Shown here: piece after piece, positions 22,581-57,403 of the stretch
Position numbering within the stretch: the stretch's first letter is position 1
How the letters are laid out: each line of letters opens with the position of its first letter
Source: Escherichia coli
GTDB taxonomy: Bacteria; Pseudomonadota; Gammaproteobacteria; Enterobacterales; Enterobacteriaceae
Reading direction: 5' to 3' (one strand)
DNA length: 64,000 nt
Assembly (NCBI RefSeq): GCF_048403405.1
Contig: NZ_CP183129.1
Translations under genes and position numbers: made by a program
Notes under the pieces: generated by a model
The model's database searches: none
The model's input: only the letters and a program-made list of their open reading frames with translations
What the model was told of the DNA's origin: nothing

Positions 22581-23402
22581 ATGATGCACAGGTTGAATCT
22601 CAATGGCTATGAACCCGACCGACACCATGAAGCCGCGGTCGCATTTTGTATTCACGCCGGAACGGATGAGTTAACCAGTCCTGTACATCAGCACCGCAAA
22701 GGACAGCTGATACTGGCGCTACATGGTGCAATTACCTGTACGGTGGAAAATGCTTTGTGGATGGTGCCACCGCAATATGCGGTTTGGATACCGGGCGGAG
22801 TGGAACATAGCAATCAAGTGACAGCTAACGCTGAACTCTGTTTTCTGTTTATCGAACCCAGCGCAGTGACAATGCCGACAACCTGTTGCACATTGAAAAT
22901 ATCGCCCTTATGCCGGGAATTAATTTTAACCCTGGCAAACAGGACGTCGACTCAGCGTGCTGAGCCGATGACCCGCAGATTAATTCAGGTCCTGTTTGAT
23001 GAACTCCCTCAGCAGCCACAACAACAGCTGCACCTACCCGTTTCTTCTCATCCTAAAATTCGCGCGATGGTGGAGATGATGGCGAAAGAGCCCGTCGAGT
23101 GGGGGTCATTGGGGCAATGGGCTCGCTTTTTTGCGATGAGTGAACGCAATCTTGCCCGACTGATAGTGAAAGAGACGGGGTTGAGTTTTCGCCAGTGGCG
23201 TCAGCAGTTACAGCTGATTATGGCGCTTCAGGGATTAGTGAAAGGCGATACTGTACAGAAAGTTGCTCATACGCTGGGGTATGATTCAACAACGGCCTTT
23301 ATTACTATGTTTAAGAAAGGCCTGGGGCAAACGCCAGGCCGATATATTGCGGGATTAACTACTGTTTCCCCACAATCAGCGAAACCAGACCCGCGGCAAT
23401 AA
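22581..23402 (+). CDS. nimR: AraC-family transcriptional regulator, known as yeaM
   Basis: 273-aa ORF; cupin-like N-terminus and C-terminal AraC HTH region. Confidence 0.88.
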
Positions 23403-23805
23403 GCGGGCCAACCGGTACGCCGCGAAACAGCGCCACGCCCAAAACAGTGCCCACCAGCAGCCCGGCGACCAGTTGCGGCTGGCTGCCCATTAACGTCACG
23501 CCGCGCCCACCTAGCCAGGAGACAATAACGCCTACTGCAATTGCCACCAGCGATTTCCAGTTCAGAAACGAGTGAATCAGGGTTGAGGGCGGTAGCGTCC
23601 CGCTGGCGATGGGGGCCATAACGCCAATCGTCAGAATGATTATCCCGATACTTAGCCCCTGTTTTTCAATCCACGGGAAAAAGGTGCTTAACGGTGTGAC
23701 GCGGACAATGATTAACACCAGAATTGAAACGGCGACAGTGGTGTTATGACTGATAAAGCCCAGCGCAGCTAACCCGAGCAGGATCAGCAAAGTGACATCA
23801 AACAT
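23359..23805 (-). CDS. yeaL: UPF0756 inner-membrane protein
   Basis: 148-aa hydrophobic ORF; convergent 3' overlap of 44 bp with nimR. Confidence 0.88.
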
Positions 23806-51057: not shown

Positions 51058-53013
51058 ATGCGGTTGTTTATTGCCGAAAAACCGAGTCTGGCGCGCGCCA
51101 TTGCTGATGTCCTGCCCAAACCGCACCGGAAAGGCGATGGCTTTATCGAGTGCGGTAATGGTCAGGTGGTGACCTGGTGTATCGGTCACCTGCTTGAGCA
51201 GGCGCAGCCAGACGCCTACGACAGCCGCTATGCGCGCTGGAATCTTGCTGATTTGCCGATTGTCCCGGAAAAGTGGCAATTACAGCCCCGACCCTCCGTG
51301 ACCAAACAACTTAATGTCATCAAACGCTTCCTGCATGAAGCCAGCGAAATCGTTCACGCCGGTGACCCGGATCGCGAAGGGCAATTACTGGTGGATGAAG
51401 TGCTGGACTATCTGCAACTGGCACCGGAAAAGCGCCAGCAGGTGCAGCGTTGCTTGATAAACGACCTGAACCCGCAGGCGGTTGAGCGGGCGATCGACCG
51501 TCTTCGTTCCAACAGTGAGTTTGTGCCGTTGTGCGTTTCTGCACTGGCGCGAGCCCGAGCCGACTGGCTGTACGGCATCAATATGACCCGCGCTTACACC
51601 ATTCTCGGTCGCAATGCGGGTTATCAGGGCGTACTTTCCGTGGGACGCGTGCAGACGCCCGTACTCGGACTGGTGGTGCGCCGCGACGAAGAGATTGAAA
51701 ACTTCGTGGCGAAAGATTTCTTTGAAGTCAAAGCGCATATCGTGACACCTGCCGATGAGCGGTTTACCGCTATCTGGCAACCGAGCGAAGCGTGTGAACC
51801 TTATCAGGATGAAGAAGGGCGCTTGTTACATCGTCCGCTGGCGGAGCATGTGGTCAACCGCATCAGCGGCCAACCGGCTATTGTCACCAGCTATAACGAT
51901 AAACGGGAATCAGAATCCGCACCGCTGCCGTTTTCGCTTTCGGCGTTGCAGATTGAAGCGGCAAAACGCTTTGGTCTGAGTGCGCAGAACGTGCTTGATA
52001 TCTGCCAGAAGTTGTACGAAACGCACAAGCTAATCACTTATCCGCGTTCCGATTGTCGCTATCTGCCGGAAGAGCATTTTGCCGGACGCCACGCAGTGAT
52101 GAATGCCATCAGCGTTCATGCACCGGACTTGTTACCGCAGCCAGTGGTCGATCCAGATATACGCAACCGCTGCTGGGATGACAAAAAGGTCGATGCGCAC
52201 CACGCCATCATCCCGACCGCACGGAGTTCTGCGATCAACCTGACGGAGAACGAAGCGAAGGTCTATAACCTGATTGCCCGTCAGTATTTGATGCAGTTCT
52301 GCCCGGATGCGGTGTTCCGCAAGTGTGTTATCGAACTGGATATTGCCAAAGGCAAATTTGTCGCTAAAGCGCGTTTTCTTGCTGAAGCAGGCTGGCGCAC
52401 GCTGTTAGGCAGCAAAGAGCGCGATGAAGAAAACGACGGTACGCCATTGCCTGTGGTGGCGAAAGGCGATGAGTTGCTGTGTGAAAAAGGTGAAGTGGTA
52501 GAGCGGCAAACCCAGCCGCCGCGTCATTTTACCGATGCAACACTGCTTTCGGCGATGACCGGGATAGCACGTTTTGTGCAGGACAAAGATCTGAAAAAGA
52601 TCCTTCGTGCGACCGATGGTCTGGGGACAGAAGCGACTCGCGCCGGGATTATTGAACTGCTGTTCAAGCGAGGCTTCCTGACCAAAAAAGGGCGCTATAT
52701 CCACTCCACCGACGCCGGAAAAGCATTATTCCATTCGCTGCCAGAGATGGCGACGCGACCGGACATGACCGCGCACTGGGAATCGGTGCTGACGCAAATC
52801 AGCGAAAAGCAGTGTCGCTACCAGGACTTTATGCAACCGCTGGTGGGGACATTGTACCAGTTGATTGATCAGGCAAAGCGCACGTCGGTAAGGCAGTTTC
52901 GGGGAATAATGGCTCCCGGCGGTGGAGAAGGGAAGAAAAAGGATTCGCCACGCAAGAGAGCGCCGAAAAAAAGCCCGCCATCAGAAGAGGCGGGCAATGG
53001 AGTGATAACATAA
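51058..53013 (+). CDS. topB: DNA topoisomerase III
   Basis: Start taken at ATG 51058 ([19 protein letters not shown]…), 4 bp after the selD stop; Toprim and type IA topoisomerase domains; lysine-rich C-terminal tail. Confidence 0.92.
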
Positions 53014-53050
53014 AGGTTCTTTCAACCATCTGATACTGAAGATTTTTATG

Positions 53051-53080
53051 GCCGGATTAGGCGTTTGCGCTGTATCCGGC
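53051..53080. repeat. REP-like palindrome between convergent topB and gdhA
   Basis: GCCGGATTAGGCGTTTGCGCTGTATCCGGC: arms GCCGGAT / ATCCGGC. Confidence 0.55.
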
Positions 53081-53089
53081 ACAATTGTC

Positions 53090-54433
53090 TTAAATCACGC
53101 CCTGGCTTAACATCGCATCCGCAACCTTCACAAAACCGGCAATGTTCGCGCCCTGCACGTAGTTGGTTTGCTCACCTTCACCACCATGCTCAACACAGGC
53201 ATGGTGGATATCCAGCATGATGTGATGCAAACGTGCGTCAACTTTCTCGGCTTTCCAGCCCAGGCGCGCAGCGTTTTGCGCCATTTCCAGGCCCGATGTT
53301 GCTACACCGCCAGCATTAGCCGCTTTACCCGGTGCAAACAGTACGCCTGCCTGCTGGAACAGTTCAGTCGCTTCGATGGTGGTCGGCATATTTGCCCCTT
53401 CGGCGACGGCTTTAACGCCATTGGCGATAAGCTGATGCGCGGCGTCAACATCCAGTTCGTTCTGGGTGGCGCAAGGCAGGGCGATATCAACTGGTACAGA
53501 CCACGGCTGTTGGCCTTCGAGATAGACCAGACCAAATTCTTTGGCGTAATCTGCCACTCGACCATCGCGGCTGGCTTTGATTTCGATAAGACGCGCCAGT
53601 TTCTCTTTCGTGAATCCGCTTTCATCAACTACAGTGCCACTGGAGTCTGACGCAGTGATCACACGAGCACCAAATTCCATCGCTTTTTCGATAGCGTACT
53701 GGGCGACGTTGCCGGAGCCAGAAACGGAAACGCGCATTCCTTCAAAACCCATACCGTGGCGTTTTAGCATTGCTTCTGTGAAATAAACCAGACCGTAGCC
53801 GGTAGCTTCCGGGCGAATAAGACTGCCGCCAAATGAAAGGCCCTTACCGGTGAAGACGCAGGCGGTATTGTTGGAGAGCTTTTTCATCATCCCCGCCATA
53901 AAGCCGACTTCACGACCACCAACCCCGATATCACCTGCCGGAACGTCGGTATCCGCGCCCAGGTGGCGATACAGTTCAGTCATCAGCGCCTGGCAAAAAC
54001 GCATCACTTCACCTTCGCTTTTTCCTTTCGGATCGAAATCGCTGCCGCCTTTACCACCGCCCATCGGCAGAGTAGTCAGGGCATTTTTGAAGGTTTGTTC
54101 GAAGCCGAGGAATTTGAGAATGGAAAGGTTAACTGACGGATGGAAGCGCATACCGCCTTTGTACGGGCCGATGGCAGAGCTGAACTGCACACGCCATGCA
54201 CGGTTGACCTGTACCTGGTTGCGATCATCAACCCATACCACGCGAAACTGGATCACGCGCTCCGGTTCAACCAGACGCTCCAGTAATGACATCTGGCGAT
54301 ATTTTGGATTTTGTTCAAGAAAAGGCCAGAGTGTGGTCATTACTTCACGAACGGCTTGCGCGAACTCGGTTTGATTCGGGTCGCGCTTTTGGACATGGTT
54401 GAGGAATGACTCCAGAGAATATGTCTGATCCAT
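53090..54433 (-). CDS. gdhA: NADP-specific glutamate dehydrogenase
   Basis: 447-aa ORF MDQTYSLESFLNHVQKRDP…; Glu/Leu/Phe/Val dehydrogenase family. Confidence 0.95.
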   Translation of the reverse strand: MDQTYSLESFLNHVQKRDPNQTEFAQAVREVMTTLWPFLEQNPKYRQMSLLERLVEPERVIQFRVVWVDDRNQVQVNRAWRVQFSSAIGPYKGGMRFHPSVNLSILKFLGFEQTFKNALTTLPMGGGKGGSDFDPKGKSEGEVMRFCQALMTELYRHLGADTDVPAGDIGVGGREVGFMAGMMKKLSNNTACVFTGKGLSFGGSLIRPEATGYGLVYFTEAMLKRHGMGFEGMRVSVSGSGNVAQYAIEKAMEFGARVITASDSSGTVVDESGFTKEKLARLIEIKASRDGRVADYAKEFGLVYLEGQQPWSVPVDIALPCATQNELDVDAAHQLIANGVKAVAEGANMPTTIEATELFQQAGVLFAPGKAANAGGVATSGLEMAQNAARLGWKAEKVDARLHHIMLDIHHACVEHGGEGEQTNYVQGANIAGFVKVADAMLSQGVI

Positions 54434-54668
54434 AGATATAAAACCCTTATATATTAATACGATTGTGCTTATGTTGTTTATGTCATGTGCTTTTGCAGTT
54501 TTCGACTATACCATCAAGAATGTGACGGTAAGCAAGAAAAAAATGACCCAGGAAAGCAAATTAATAACGAGAGTAATCTCATAACCAAATGCGATAACTC
54601 AGACGCTAAAGTTTTGCCACCCGGCTACCGTTATCAGTAGCAGAGACAATAACGTTAAGGAGTTCCCT

Positions 54669-54941
54669 GTGAGTCGAGCATTGTTCGCCGTAGTATTAGC
54701 ATTTCCATTAATTGCACTGGCTAACCCGCATTATCGTCCGGACGTGGAGGTAAACGTACCGCCAGAAGTGTTCAGTTCAGGCGGGCAGTCAGCGCAGCCC
54801 TGTACTCAGTGCTGCATTTATCAGGATCAAAATTATTCTGAAGGGGCGGTAATTAAAGCCGAAGGAATACTGCTGCAATGCCAGCGTGATGACAAAACCC
54901 TTAGCACTAATCCGCTGGTCTGGCGGCGCGTAAAGCCATAA
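54669..54941 (+). CDS. ynjH: DUF1496 secreted protein
   Basis: 90-aa ORF with GTG start after AAGGAG and an N-terminal signal peptide. Confidence 0.85.
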   Translation: MSRALFAVVLAFPLIALANPHYRPDVEVNVPPEVFSSGGQSAQPCTQCCIYQDQNYSEGAVIKAEGILLQCQRDDKTLSTNPLVWRRVKP

Positions 54942-55314
54942 ACGCCTCTAATAATGGAATGTCAGCAGGGGCCAGCGGATATTGCAGCGCCTCTTCAGGT
55001 GAGCACCAGACCAGCGCCTGATGTTCATGTGCCTGTAACGTCCCGTGGAAGTCGGGTACGTGCCAGGCATGAAGATGGATAATCCGCCCCGAAACTTCTC
55101 GCTGATGGCTGGCAACATATTCACCCACAGCTGCTTCGATGCCCAGTTCTTCGCGTAACTCACGCACCAGCGCCTGCCGCTGGCTTTCATCCGGCTCGAC
55201 TTTACCACCGGCAAACTCCCATAATCCCGCCTGATCGCTATGGGCGGGGCGTTGCGCGAGTAAAATTTTGCCATCACGTTCGATGATGGCGGCAACAACT
55301 TCAACCATTTTCAT
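54907..55314 (-). CDS. nudG: CTP pyrophosphohydrolase (Nudix)
   Basis: 135-aa ORF; Nudix box GGKVEPDESQRQALVRELREELGI. Confidence 0.9.
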   Translation of the reverse strand: MKMVEVVAAIIERDGKILLAQRPAHSDQAGLWEFAGGKVEPDESQRQALVRELREELGIEAAVGEYVASHQREVSGRIIHLHAWHVPDFHGTLQAHEHQALVWCSPEEALQYPLAPADIPLLEAFMALRAARPAD

Positions 55315-55400
55315 AAATTACACACGGGTAGATAAGCGAAAAATGCCATAATATCCGCACTGTTGCTCAATCAGAAAGGCTTTATATTTAAGGAGTGCCT

Positions 55401-56021
55401 GTGCTAGACCGCCATCTTCATCCCCGAATTAAACCTTTGTTGCATCAGTGTGTGAAGGTGCTGGATAAACCCGGCATCACGCCAGATGGTTTAACATTAG
55501 TGGGATTTGCCATCGGTGTGCTGGCACTGCCTTTTCTGGCGCTGGGCTGGTATCTGGCGGCGCTTGTCGTCATTTTGTTAAACAGGCTGCTTGATGGTCT
55601 GGACGGTGCGCTGGCGCGGCGCAGAGGGCTTACCGACGCGGGCGGCTTTCTCGATATTTCTCTCGATTTTCTCTTTTACGCGCTGGTGCCGTTTGGTTTT
55701 ATTCTTGCTGCACCGGAGCAAAATGCGCTGGCAGGCGGCTGGCTGCTGTTTGCGTTTATCGGTACGGGCAGCAGTTTTCTCGCCTTTGCTGCACTGGCAG
55801 CAAAACATCAGATTGATAACCCCGGTTATGCACATAAGTCGTTTTACTATCTGGGGGGATTAACCGAAGGCACTGAAACGATCTTACTGTTTGTGCTGGG
55901 ATGTTTATTCCCTGCATGGTTTGTGTGGTTTGCGTGGATCTTCGGTGCGTTGTGCTGGATGACGACCTTTACGCGGGTGTGGAGTGGGTATCTGACGCTG
56001 AAGTCGCTCCAGCGTCAGTAA
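55401..56021 (+). CDS. ynjF: CDP-alcohol phosphatidyltransferase-family membrane protein
   Basis: Start taken at GTG 55401, 5 nt after AAGGAG (206 aa); motif DGLDGALARRRG. Confidence 0.85.
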   Translation: MLDRHLHPRIKPLLHQCVKVLDKPGITPDGLTLVGFAIGVLALPFLALGWYLAALVVILLNRLLDGLDGALARRRGLTDAGGFLDISLDFLFYALVPFGFILAAPEQNALAGGWLLFAFIGTGSSFLAFAALAAKHQIDNPGYAHKSFYYLGGLTEGTETILLFVLGCLFPAWFVWFAWIFGALCWMTTFTRVWSGYLTLKSLQRQ

Positions 56022-56029
56022 TTGCAATG

Positions 56030-57337
56030 TTATTTGCTGCTGTCCGGGCCGCGTTCACCGGTTGCAACCGGATTTTTTGGATCGCTGCTCCATTCGTACC
56101 AGCCGCCGTCGTAAACGGAGACGTTATTCCAGCCCATTGCTCGTGCGTACATAAAGGTTTCGGATGCGCGCCAGCCGGTGCCGCAGTAGAATGAAACTTG
56201 CTGATCTGGCTTGATATTCCATGCTTTCCACATAGCGGTAATATCATCGGCGCTACGCATGGTGCCATCCGGGTTATGGAAATCTTCCATATGCGTCGAG
56301 TCGCTACCAGCGTGTCCCCAACGTGCTCCGGCTATTTCACCTTTTGGTTTAATATAGCTGTAACCGCTGGTCGTACCGATAAATTCTGGCCACGAACGAA
56401 TGCTCACCAGCGATGCATCCTGGCGATGCAGCAGTCCACGCGCCTGTTCCATATCAAGCATCAGTTGCGGTTGTGCCGGGATCTTCACGCCGAAATCCGG
56501 TTCCGCTTTCACTTTCGGTGGCGTTCCGCGCTCAACAGGCAGTCCCGCGTCGGACCAGGTTTGCCAGCCGCCATCCAGCAGGCGCACATCTTTCACGCCG
56601 GCATAAAGCATTATCTGCGCCACACGCGCTGCAGCGTATACGTCACGCCCGTACAGAATGACCGTGGTGTCATGGCGAATGCCGTGTTTTGCCAGCATCG
56701 CTTTTAGTTGTTCATCAGAAACTTTGTTCCACAGCGGTTCGCTTTCCACTTCGTTGGTATCGATGTAGTCAGCGCCGGGAATATGACTGATAAGGTAAAG
56801 CTTAGGAGCGCCCCAGGCCGCTTCAATGACTTTCCAGTCACCGGCAGGTTTCGCCGTAACCTCTTTACCTTGTTGCAGGTCGTGCAGCCATTGCGGATAA
56901 ACCAGCTGCTCAAAGTGCGGCAGTTTTTGCAGACGGGAAGGTTCACTTAGCGCGTCACTCAGGATGGAGATATGCGTAAAACCTGCTTTTTGCAGACGCG
57001 TTTTGACGGCATCGACATCTTTGTCATTACCGTACAGCGCAACCGGAGCATCGGCTTTCAGGTTATGTAGCTTGATCCACGCGTTAAGCTGTTCGGTGCT
57101 CATTTTGTCGAGCCAGCTGGCAGAGAGGTTTAAGGCGGCAGGCTCATGACCAGAAGGGCCATTTAAGATTTGTGGCCAGCCGTTATAAAACGCGCTGGGG
57201 CGAGTATCTATCGCTTTGCCATTTTGTTGTTGAAGCTGGTCAAGTGTAAGAGGCTTCGCCAGTTCAGCGGCCCACGAAGAAGCGCAAGCCAGCCCTAAAG
57301 CCATTGCCAGCGCGGTCATTTGAGAAACACGTTTCAT
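56030..57337 (-). CDS. ynjE: periplasmic thiosulfate sulfurtransferase (rhodanese domains)
   Basis: Start taken at MKRVSQMTALAMALGLACASSWA… (435 aa); catalytic cysteine motif CGTGWR. Confidence 0.9.
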   Translation of the reverse strand: MKRVSQMTALAMALGLACASSWAAELAKPLTLDQLQQQNGKAIDTRPSAFYNGWPQILNGPSGHEPAALNLSASWLDKMSTEQLNAWIKLHNLKADAPVALYGNDKDVDAVKTRLQKAGFTHISILSDALSEPSRLQKLPHFEQLVYPQWLHDLQQGKEVTAKPAGDWKVIEAAWGAPKLYLISHIPGADYIDTNEVESEPLWNKVSDEQLKAMLAKHGIRHDTTVILYGRDVYAAARVAQIMLYAGVKDVRLLDGGWQTWSDAGLPVERGTPPKVKAEPDFGVKIPAQPQLMLDMEQARGLLHRQDASLVSIRSWPEFIGTTSGYSYIKPKGEIAGARWGHAGSDSTHMEDFHNPDGTMRSADDITAMWKAWNIKPDQQVSFYCGTGWRASETFMYARAMGWNNVSVYDGGWYEWSSDPKNPVATGERGPDSSK

Positions 57338-57403
57338 CGAAAATCCCGACATTGTAGTTTTGAGTGCGCCATTCTGAACTGACGCATTGGGAAAAACTTT
57401 GCG

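Follow-up and report, generated by a model that had tools for sequence, protein, structure and literature searches.

The window analysed here is a 64-kb stretch (64,000 nucleotides) of the Escherichia coli chromosome, with its orientation reversed relative to K-12. It contains two genes on opposite strands, ynjH and nudG, which run into each other tail to tail between gdhA and ynjF. The features at this locus are as follows.

54669-54941, + strand: ynjH CDS, 90 aa, GTG start, TAA stop at 54939-54941; a secreted DUF1496 protein
54907-55314, - strand: nudG CDS, 135 aa, ATG start, TAG stop (read as 'cta' at 54907-54909 on the + strand); the product is a Nudix CTP / 2-OH-dATP / (p)ppGpp pyrophosphohydrolase
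54907-54941, both strands: 35-bp convergent CDS overlap, covering ynjH codons 80 (part) to 90 plus stop and nudG codons 125 (part) to 135 plus stop
53090-54433, - strand: gdhA, the neighbour on the ynjH side
55401-56021, + strand: ynjF, the neighbour on the nudG side, followed by ynjE on the - strand

The ORFs read from the window place the overlap of ynjH (+) and nudG (-) at 54907-54941 with a length of exactly 35 bp, as the first-pass annotation had claimed. Both ORF ends, RefSeq and the K-12 coordinates agree on this. The RefSeq CDSs of ynjH and nudG have the same ends in a genome that is 99.9% identical, and the published K-12 coordinates, nudG 1839514-1839921 (+) and ynjH 1839887-1840159 (-), also give 35 bp (PMC7373196). 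The locus is carried by 5414 of the 5426 complete E. coli genomes. Within the overlap, codon positions 1, 2 and 3 of ynjH lie opposite positions 1, 3 and 2 of nudG, respectively. Both are genuine genes on opposite strands and the stop of each lies inside the ORF of the other, so the pair belongs to the convergent overlapping protein-coding genes and the two mRNAs are antisense at their 3' ends. A shorter C-terminus of either protein had been named as the case that would remove the overlap; since a stop codon is fixed by its reading frame, no such C-terminus is possible in the E. coli sequence.

The two proteins are well supported. YnjH matches the Pfam domain DUF1496 over residues 33-89 of 90 (E=3e-24), and it has been detected both as mRNA and as protein (PMC6551532). 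In NudG, the NUDIX match covers residues 2-125 and that to the NCBIfam equivalog PRK10546 spans residues 1-135; a structure of the full-length 135-residue sequence has been solved (PDB 2RRK). The enzyme is biochemically characterised and hydrolyses (p)ppGpp (PMC5845004).

We then consider whether the length of the overlap is unusual. Over the 61 CDSs of the window, the antisense phase in question has 0.045 stops per codon, and an open run of at least 10 codons from the 3' end of a gene in that phase is found in about 61% of cases. The length of 35 bp is therefore unremarkable and within chance expectation. How common such an arrangement is was judged from the convergent CDS pairs of the window together with a published excludon list. 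The window holds 11 convergent pairs, two of which overlap by 35 bp or more (ynjH-nudG with 35 bp and nimR-yeaL with 44 bp), and further tight pairs are yoaI-yeaK, ynjF-ynjE and yoaF-yeaO, which are 0, 8 and 21 bp apart, respectively. The second and longer convergent CDS overlap of the window, also on the published excludon list (PMC12288877), is located as follows.

23359-23402, both strands: 44-bp overlap of nimR (+ strand, 22581-23402) and yeaL (- strand, 23359-23805)

The strand alternates strictly across the five genes gdhA-ynjH-nudG-ynjF-ynjE, so each of them, when read through, yields RNA antisense to the adjacent gene. At 55401-57352, ynjF (+) and ynjE (-) form the next convergent pair, with an 8-bp gap, and they too are a listed excludon (PMC12288877). 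Several other observations were made in the surroundings. The spacing between topB and gdhA is 76 bp in this strain (53014-53089), and ynjI (b1762), which sits between gdhA and topB in K-12, is absent. A sub-threshold match to a naRNA4/REP-like Rfam family at 53050-53096 was the sole match in the scan of 53000-57000. In the near-identical strain CFSAN061763, dgcP is annotated as frameshifted (pseudogene; locus L083, 19278-20302, with coordinates shifted by about 140 bp relative to the window in part of the dgcP region). In the E. coli isolate F829 (NZ_OY754443.1; locus L002, 1071-2543), an IS5-like insertion (ISKpn26) splits ynjH near codon 78, and the remnant ynjH ORF still overlaps the intact nudG by 35 bp. 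F829 is thus a ready-made natural strain with transcription from the ynjH promoter uncoupled from nudG.

For the comparison between species, nudG loci were gathered from 80 species and the overlap length was measured in each. In 77 of the 80 species (Enterobacterales), ynjH is kept convergent to nudG. The overlap measures 23-44 bp in the 61 Enterobacteriaceae species and is never lost there: 41 bp is found in 31 species, 35 bp in 20, 26, 38 and 44 bp in three each, and 23 bp in one. Across these 61 species the position of the ynjH stop is fixed and that of the nudG stop is variable, the shortest natural NudG stopping at the residue equivalent to Arg132. In the 16 outgroups that keep the pair (Serratia, Yersinia, Erwinia), the stops range from 100 bp apart to 12 bp overlapping. 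This distribution suggests an old convergent nudG/ynjH pair which probably never had room for a terminator between the genes. The spacer would have been lost in the ancestor of the Enterobacteriaceae, and the NudG frame may then have extended into the antisense of the last ynjH codons up to the next chance stop.

The alignment also indicates which of the two proteins governs the shared bases. Column conservation in the overlap by ynjH codon position 1/2/3 is 0.94/0.97/0.71, and directly past the ynjH stop the periodicity becomes that of nudG, with 0.80/0.87/0.50. The last 11 residues of YnjH, TNPLVWRRVKP, belong to the conserved DUF1496 domain and are 94.5% conserved per column. The NudG residues opposite this tail are 38-77% conserved, except for one Ala forced by the ynjH Trp codon. 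The conservation pattern shows that the overlap sequence is ruled mainly by YnjH, and NudG takes the residues imposed on it by the wobble bases of ynjH. Two ynjH codons and two blocks of nudG codons are of interest here.

54906-54908, + strand: ynjH Thr80 codon ACT, whose synonymous third base and the following A create the nudG TAG stop
54930-54932, + strand: ynjH Val88 codon GTA, where GTT or GTC would place TAA or TGA in the nudG frame
54922-54939, - strand: nudG codons 126-131, which encode the final 1.5 turns of the predicted C-terminal helix
54910-54921, - strand: nudG codons 132-135, low-confidence coil

In 21 of 21 sequences, ACT at Thr80 goes with the 35-bp overlap. When Thr80 is encoded by ACG, ACC or ACA, NudG is two to three codons longer, giving an overlap of 41, 38 or 44 bp, while in the 26-bp overlaps (Thr80 not ACT) NudG ends earlier through a different upstream change. 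Since the nudG TAG is present only with ACT at Thr80, the end of NudG is, as far as the aligned sequences tell, a by-product of a synonymous site in ynjH.

The Val88 codon bears on the nudG frame. A pyrimidine-ending codon (GTY) at this site, followed by the A of the next codon, would truncate NudG after Ala127, inside the C-terminal helix. Among the 61 species, Val88 is encoded 43 times by GTA, 18 times by GTG and never by GTY; elsewhere in the same genes, pyrimidine-ending codons make up 42% of those used for Val, and GTA is the least frequent of the four. The avoidance of GTY implies that the nudG frame is read within the overlap. In the AlphaFold2 model of NudG (built on alignment A2), the mean pLDDT is 92.8, a helix spans residues 118-131 and the last block (132-135) has a pLDDT of 63. 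Codon counts and model together suggest that the end of the NudG helix is kept open by selection, with the tail after it probably dispensable.

A NudG tail free of selection had been our first reading of the periodicity. It was dropped in view of the Val88 codon counts and the structure model, by which roughly the first six NudG residues encoded in the overlap finish a helix that is kept open.

Transcription of ynjH starts from a promoter of the flagellar sigma factor.

54607-54634, + strand: ynjH σ28-type promoter, TAAAGTTT-N12-ACCGTTAT, exact match

The RegulonDB transcription start of ynjHp corresponds to window position 54641, and the RegulonDB ynjHp sequence is reproduced in the supplement of PMC4183435. 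The σ28 motif lies 23-43 nt upstream of ynjH in Escherichia, Citrobacter, Salmonella, Kluyvera and Kosakonia. FliA dependence of ynjH has been reported from a ChIP-seq peak and from RNA-seq, with values of 29 in the wild type and 2 in ΔfliA (PMC4183435), and σ28 dependence is conserved for the Salmonella homologue STM1300. With its promoter and FliA-dependent expression, ynjH belongs to class 3 of the σ28 (FliA) regulon.

Two further observations concern sigma-factor motifs around the pair. Two σ28-like motifs overlap back to back at 54607-54657, namely the ynjH promoter (+) and TAACGTTATTGTCTCTGCTACTGATAAC (-, 54630-54657). The FliA ChIP-seq table (PMC4183435) gives the latter motif for ynjH, and it points to gdhA, not ynjH; either the published motif is on the wrong strand or it is a divergent σ28 site facing gdhA. 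On the other side, the σ54 ChIP-seq intragenic site IS23 (GTGGCGCAGATTATGCT) falls within K-12 ynjE, at about 56.6 kb of the window; it is on the same strand as nudG and about 1.3 kb upstream of it, and nudG was the nearest downstream co-oriented gene in the study that described IS23.

For transcription across the pair, we used the published strand-specific total RNA-seq of Huang et al. 2020 (PMC7373196, Table S1c), which gives RPM per gene from single samples. The values are as follows.

nudG, wild type: sense 9.0, antisense 45.4 RPM
nudG, rnc-14: sense 3.8, antisense 29.2 RPM
nudG, rnc-38: sense 5.6, antisense 17.0 RPM
ynjH, wild type: sense 80.0, antisense 2.7 RPM
ynjH, rnc-14: sense 79.0, antisense 0.9 RPM
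ynjH, rnc-38: sense 27.4, antisense 2.5 RPM

Strand-specific coverage had been proposed in the first-pass annotation as a check on antisense 3' ends, and the per-gene counts bear it out: in the wild type, nudG has 5 times as many antisense as sense reads. Mutual stops, the lack of a terminator and the excludon listing of the pair (PMC12288877) lead to the same result, and by these published data (PMC12288877, PMC7373196) the pair has the overlapping transcripts of a convergent excludon. The read density of ynjH is 0.29 RPM per nt, from which about 10 RPM would be expected over a 35-nt overlap. When compared with the 45 RPM counted antisense to nudG, this implies ynjH read-through of roughly 150 nt at least, as estimated from per-gene totals. 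The antisense RNA thus appears to reach far beyond 35 nt with ynjH dominating, and the σ28-driven ynjH RNA, the more strongly transcribed of the two, would read well into nudG. A minor share of the nudG antisense may stem from a promoter-like site at 55196-55225 (+). On the other hand, the sense reads of nudG are not raised in rnc-14 or rnc-38 (from 9.0 to 3.8 and 5.6 RPM, single samples), and p19-captured dsRNA over nudG amounts to 6-35 RPM, similar to neighbouring genes (PMC7373196, single samples).

The absence of a terminator follows from a consensus scan of 54300-55500, which found no intrinsic-terminator-like site, and the E-value scan of 53000-57000 found no Rfam family in the overlap. 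The sequence folds no better than shuffled sequence on either strand (z = -0.56 and +0.13), and the 35-species RNAalifold consensus reaches only -8.5 kcal/mol with a covariation term of -0.3, so no conserved hairpin was detected. No ynjH or nudG entry occurs in the parts available to us of the supplement text of the Term-seq (PMC7815308) and SMRT-Cappable-seq (PMC6131387) studies. Since neither gene has an intrinsic terminator or a conserved hairpin, both transcripts have to end within the partner gene. For the ynjH transcript, the following tract is a candidate.

55080-55240, + strand (ynjH-sense): C-rich, G-poor tract inside antisense nudG, a candidate Rho-utilisation region

The GC skew over this tract is -0.30 to -0.39 in 80-nt windows. 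The ynjH read-through RNA is probably ended by Rho acting on the untranslated C-rich tract, or by polymerase collision.

Four explanations of the overlap can be weighed on this evidence. That one of the ORFs is no real gene, or ends earlier, so that no true coding overlap exists, has a starting point in YnjH being small, without known function and with a GTG start, and in the predicted disorder of the last four residues of NudG. We give it practically no credence: the reading frames fix the stop codons, DUF1496 reaches residue 89 of 90 in YnjH and the C-terminus is nearly invariant with coding periodicity in 61 species, the YnjH protein has been detected (PMC6551532), NudG is characterised biochemically with 2RRK covering all 135 residues, and Val88 is never encoded by a codon that would create a stop, evidence that the nudG frame is in use. 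An annotation artefact or alternative C-terminus was thus rejected on conservation, domain coverage, solved structure and stop avoidance. A shared bidirectional terminator, that is, a hairpin in or next to 54907-54941 which stops both transcripts and leaves a short, precisely set antisense overlap, is of a kind established for convergent pairs, as are programmed polymerase collisions. In predicted folds of the E. coli sequence, ATCCGCTGG (54910-54918) can pair with CCAGCGGAT (54971-54979), and GCTGGTCTGG with CCAGACCAGC near 55007. Nevertheless, the repeats lack flanking U or A tracts, and the ATCCGCTGG/CCAGCGGAT repeats, which consist of Pro-Leu codons (CCG CTG) on either strand, are not conserved. 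The scan is empty, the fold energies are at the shuffled level, and the antisense reads over nudG are far above the yield of a 35-nt overlap. We regard such a terminator as very improbable, and an intrinsic or bidirectional terminator at the overlap was rejected on the scan, the folds on both strands, the 35-species consensus and the unconserved repeats; the pair is therefore not placed in the class of bidirectional intrinsic terminators.

The remaining choice is between packing and regulation. We consider it highly probable that two real, unrelated genes genuinely overlap tail to tail here as a product of tight packing and that no dedicated device is involved; NudG output, if affected at all, would be affected as a by-product. 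Some observations do not sit easily with tight packing. The order-wide conservation of the pair and the missing terminator could reflect selection for overlapping transcription, ExcludonFinder finds that synteny is kept more often in excludon pairs than in other adjacent pairs (PMC12288877), and a 5-fold antisense excess over nudG mRNA is a setting in which interference is expected. As to the read-through that goes with tight packing, the per-gene antisense totals could partly come from an internal promoter such as the one at 55196-55225 (+). The alternative, in line with the coupling suggested in the first-pass annotation, is that the pair works as a functional convergent excludon. With the flagellar regulon on, σ28-driven ynjH RNA would run antisense through nudG and lower NudG, either because polymerases collide or interfere or because RNase III cleaves the duplex; nudG transcription would act likewise on ynjH, and the overlap and the absence of a terminator would be kept by selection for coupling. 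The pair is on the MG1655 convergent excludon list (PMC12288877), nudG antisense is 5 times sense (PMC7373196), and FliA drives conditional transcription of ynjH in both E. coli and Salmonella, from a σ28 promoter of conserved position. Neither a terminator nor a conserved hairpin is present at the junction or inside the two gene ends, 77 of 80 Enterobacterales species retain the tightly packed pair, and some p19-captured dsRNA reads (6-35 RPM) map to nudG. Yet the nudG sense reads do not rise in either rnc mutant, the p19 dsRNA level over nudG does not exceed that of neighbouring genes, and both the p19 authors and ExcludonFinder report few dsRNAs at 3' overlaps generally. Moreover, the accessible part of the supplementary tables from the FliA study does not contain nudG, which is not conclusive (PMC4183435), no functional link between YnjH and NudG is known, and protein-coding constraints fully explain the sequence pattern of the overlap. 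A functional excludon at this locus is accordingly unlikely in our assessment, though less so than the other alternatives. Its most far-reaching form, a σ28-controlled antisense switch by which ynjH read-through RNA holds down NudG in motile cells across the Enterobacteriaceae, we hold to be distinctly improbable; if true, it would tie alarmone and nucleotide housekeeping (CTP, oxidised nucleotides, (p)ppGpp) to the flagellar programme.

Tight packing thus remains the preferred explanation, and much of the locus is already documented. GWIPS-viz showed the "overlapping genes nudG and ynjH" as a figure example in 2018 (Ribo-seq, strand-specific). ExcludonFinder (Sanmartin et al., NAR 2025, PMC12288877) lists nudG-ynjH among 165 convergent excludons of MG1655, the list taking in pairs detected in 50% or more of 58 MG1655 transcriptomes, and four neighbours from the window, ynjE-ynjF, yeaL-nimR, yeaK-yoaI and yeaO-yoaF, are on the same list. 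In the FliA regulon study (PMC4183435), the ynjH deletion primer left in place the last codons, which are shared with nudG. The overlap is therefore already known and published, every E. coli annotation contains it, and it is an ordinary member of a common class. The novelty is small and confined to the evolutionary dissection, namely the ynjH-dominant dual coding, the synonymous-site stop toggle and the avoidance of the stop-creating Val codons. As a discovery the overlap carries little weight; its modest value is that of a clean worked example of two proteins sharing DNA.

When compared to known systems, the pair resembles the convergent excludons (PMC12288877; concept reviewed in PMC7154746) in that opposite-strand neighbours have 3'-overlapping transcripts; it differs in that RNA-seq coverage is the sole basis of the nudG-ynjH listing and that nudG mRNA does not rise in the rnc mutants. 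The combination ynjH-[nudG]-ynjF is not among the three noncontiguous operons reported for E. coli (PMC12288877). Noncontiguous operons of the S. aureus menE-menC/ytkD type nevertheless share with it the alternating strands, as ynjH read-through points to the co-oriented ynjF. Bidirectional intrinsic terminators and head-on polymerase collisions at convergent pairs were reportedly described by Ju et al. in 2019. Programmed head-on RNA polymerase collisions at convergent pairs are the subject of a preprint by Wang et al. (2022, 10.1101/2022.10.23.513370). As in these collision systems, ynjH-nudG has no room for separate terminators and collision may help to end both transcripts; those systems, however, need a stem-loop for positioned collisions, and at ynjH-nudG a stem-loop is neither present nor conserved. 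The closest likeness is to bacterial tail-to-tail overlaps, which Johnson and Chisholm in 2004 and Kingsford, Delcher and Salzberg in 2007 are said to have explained by chance stops after loss of the spacer. Like these, ynjH-nudG has shared 3' ends, a length in the chance range and one stop that is set by a synonymous site of the partner. Its 35-41 bp exceed the 1-4 bp of the very common overlaps, and when compared with the usual tail-to-tail overlaps it is stable across the family (61 species) and has a detectable dual-coding constraint at Val88.
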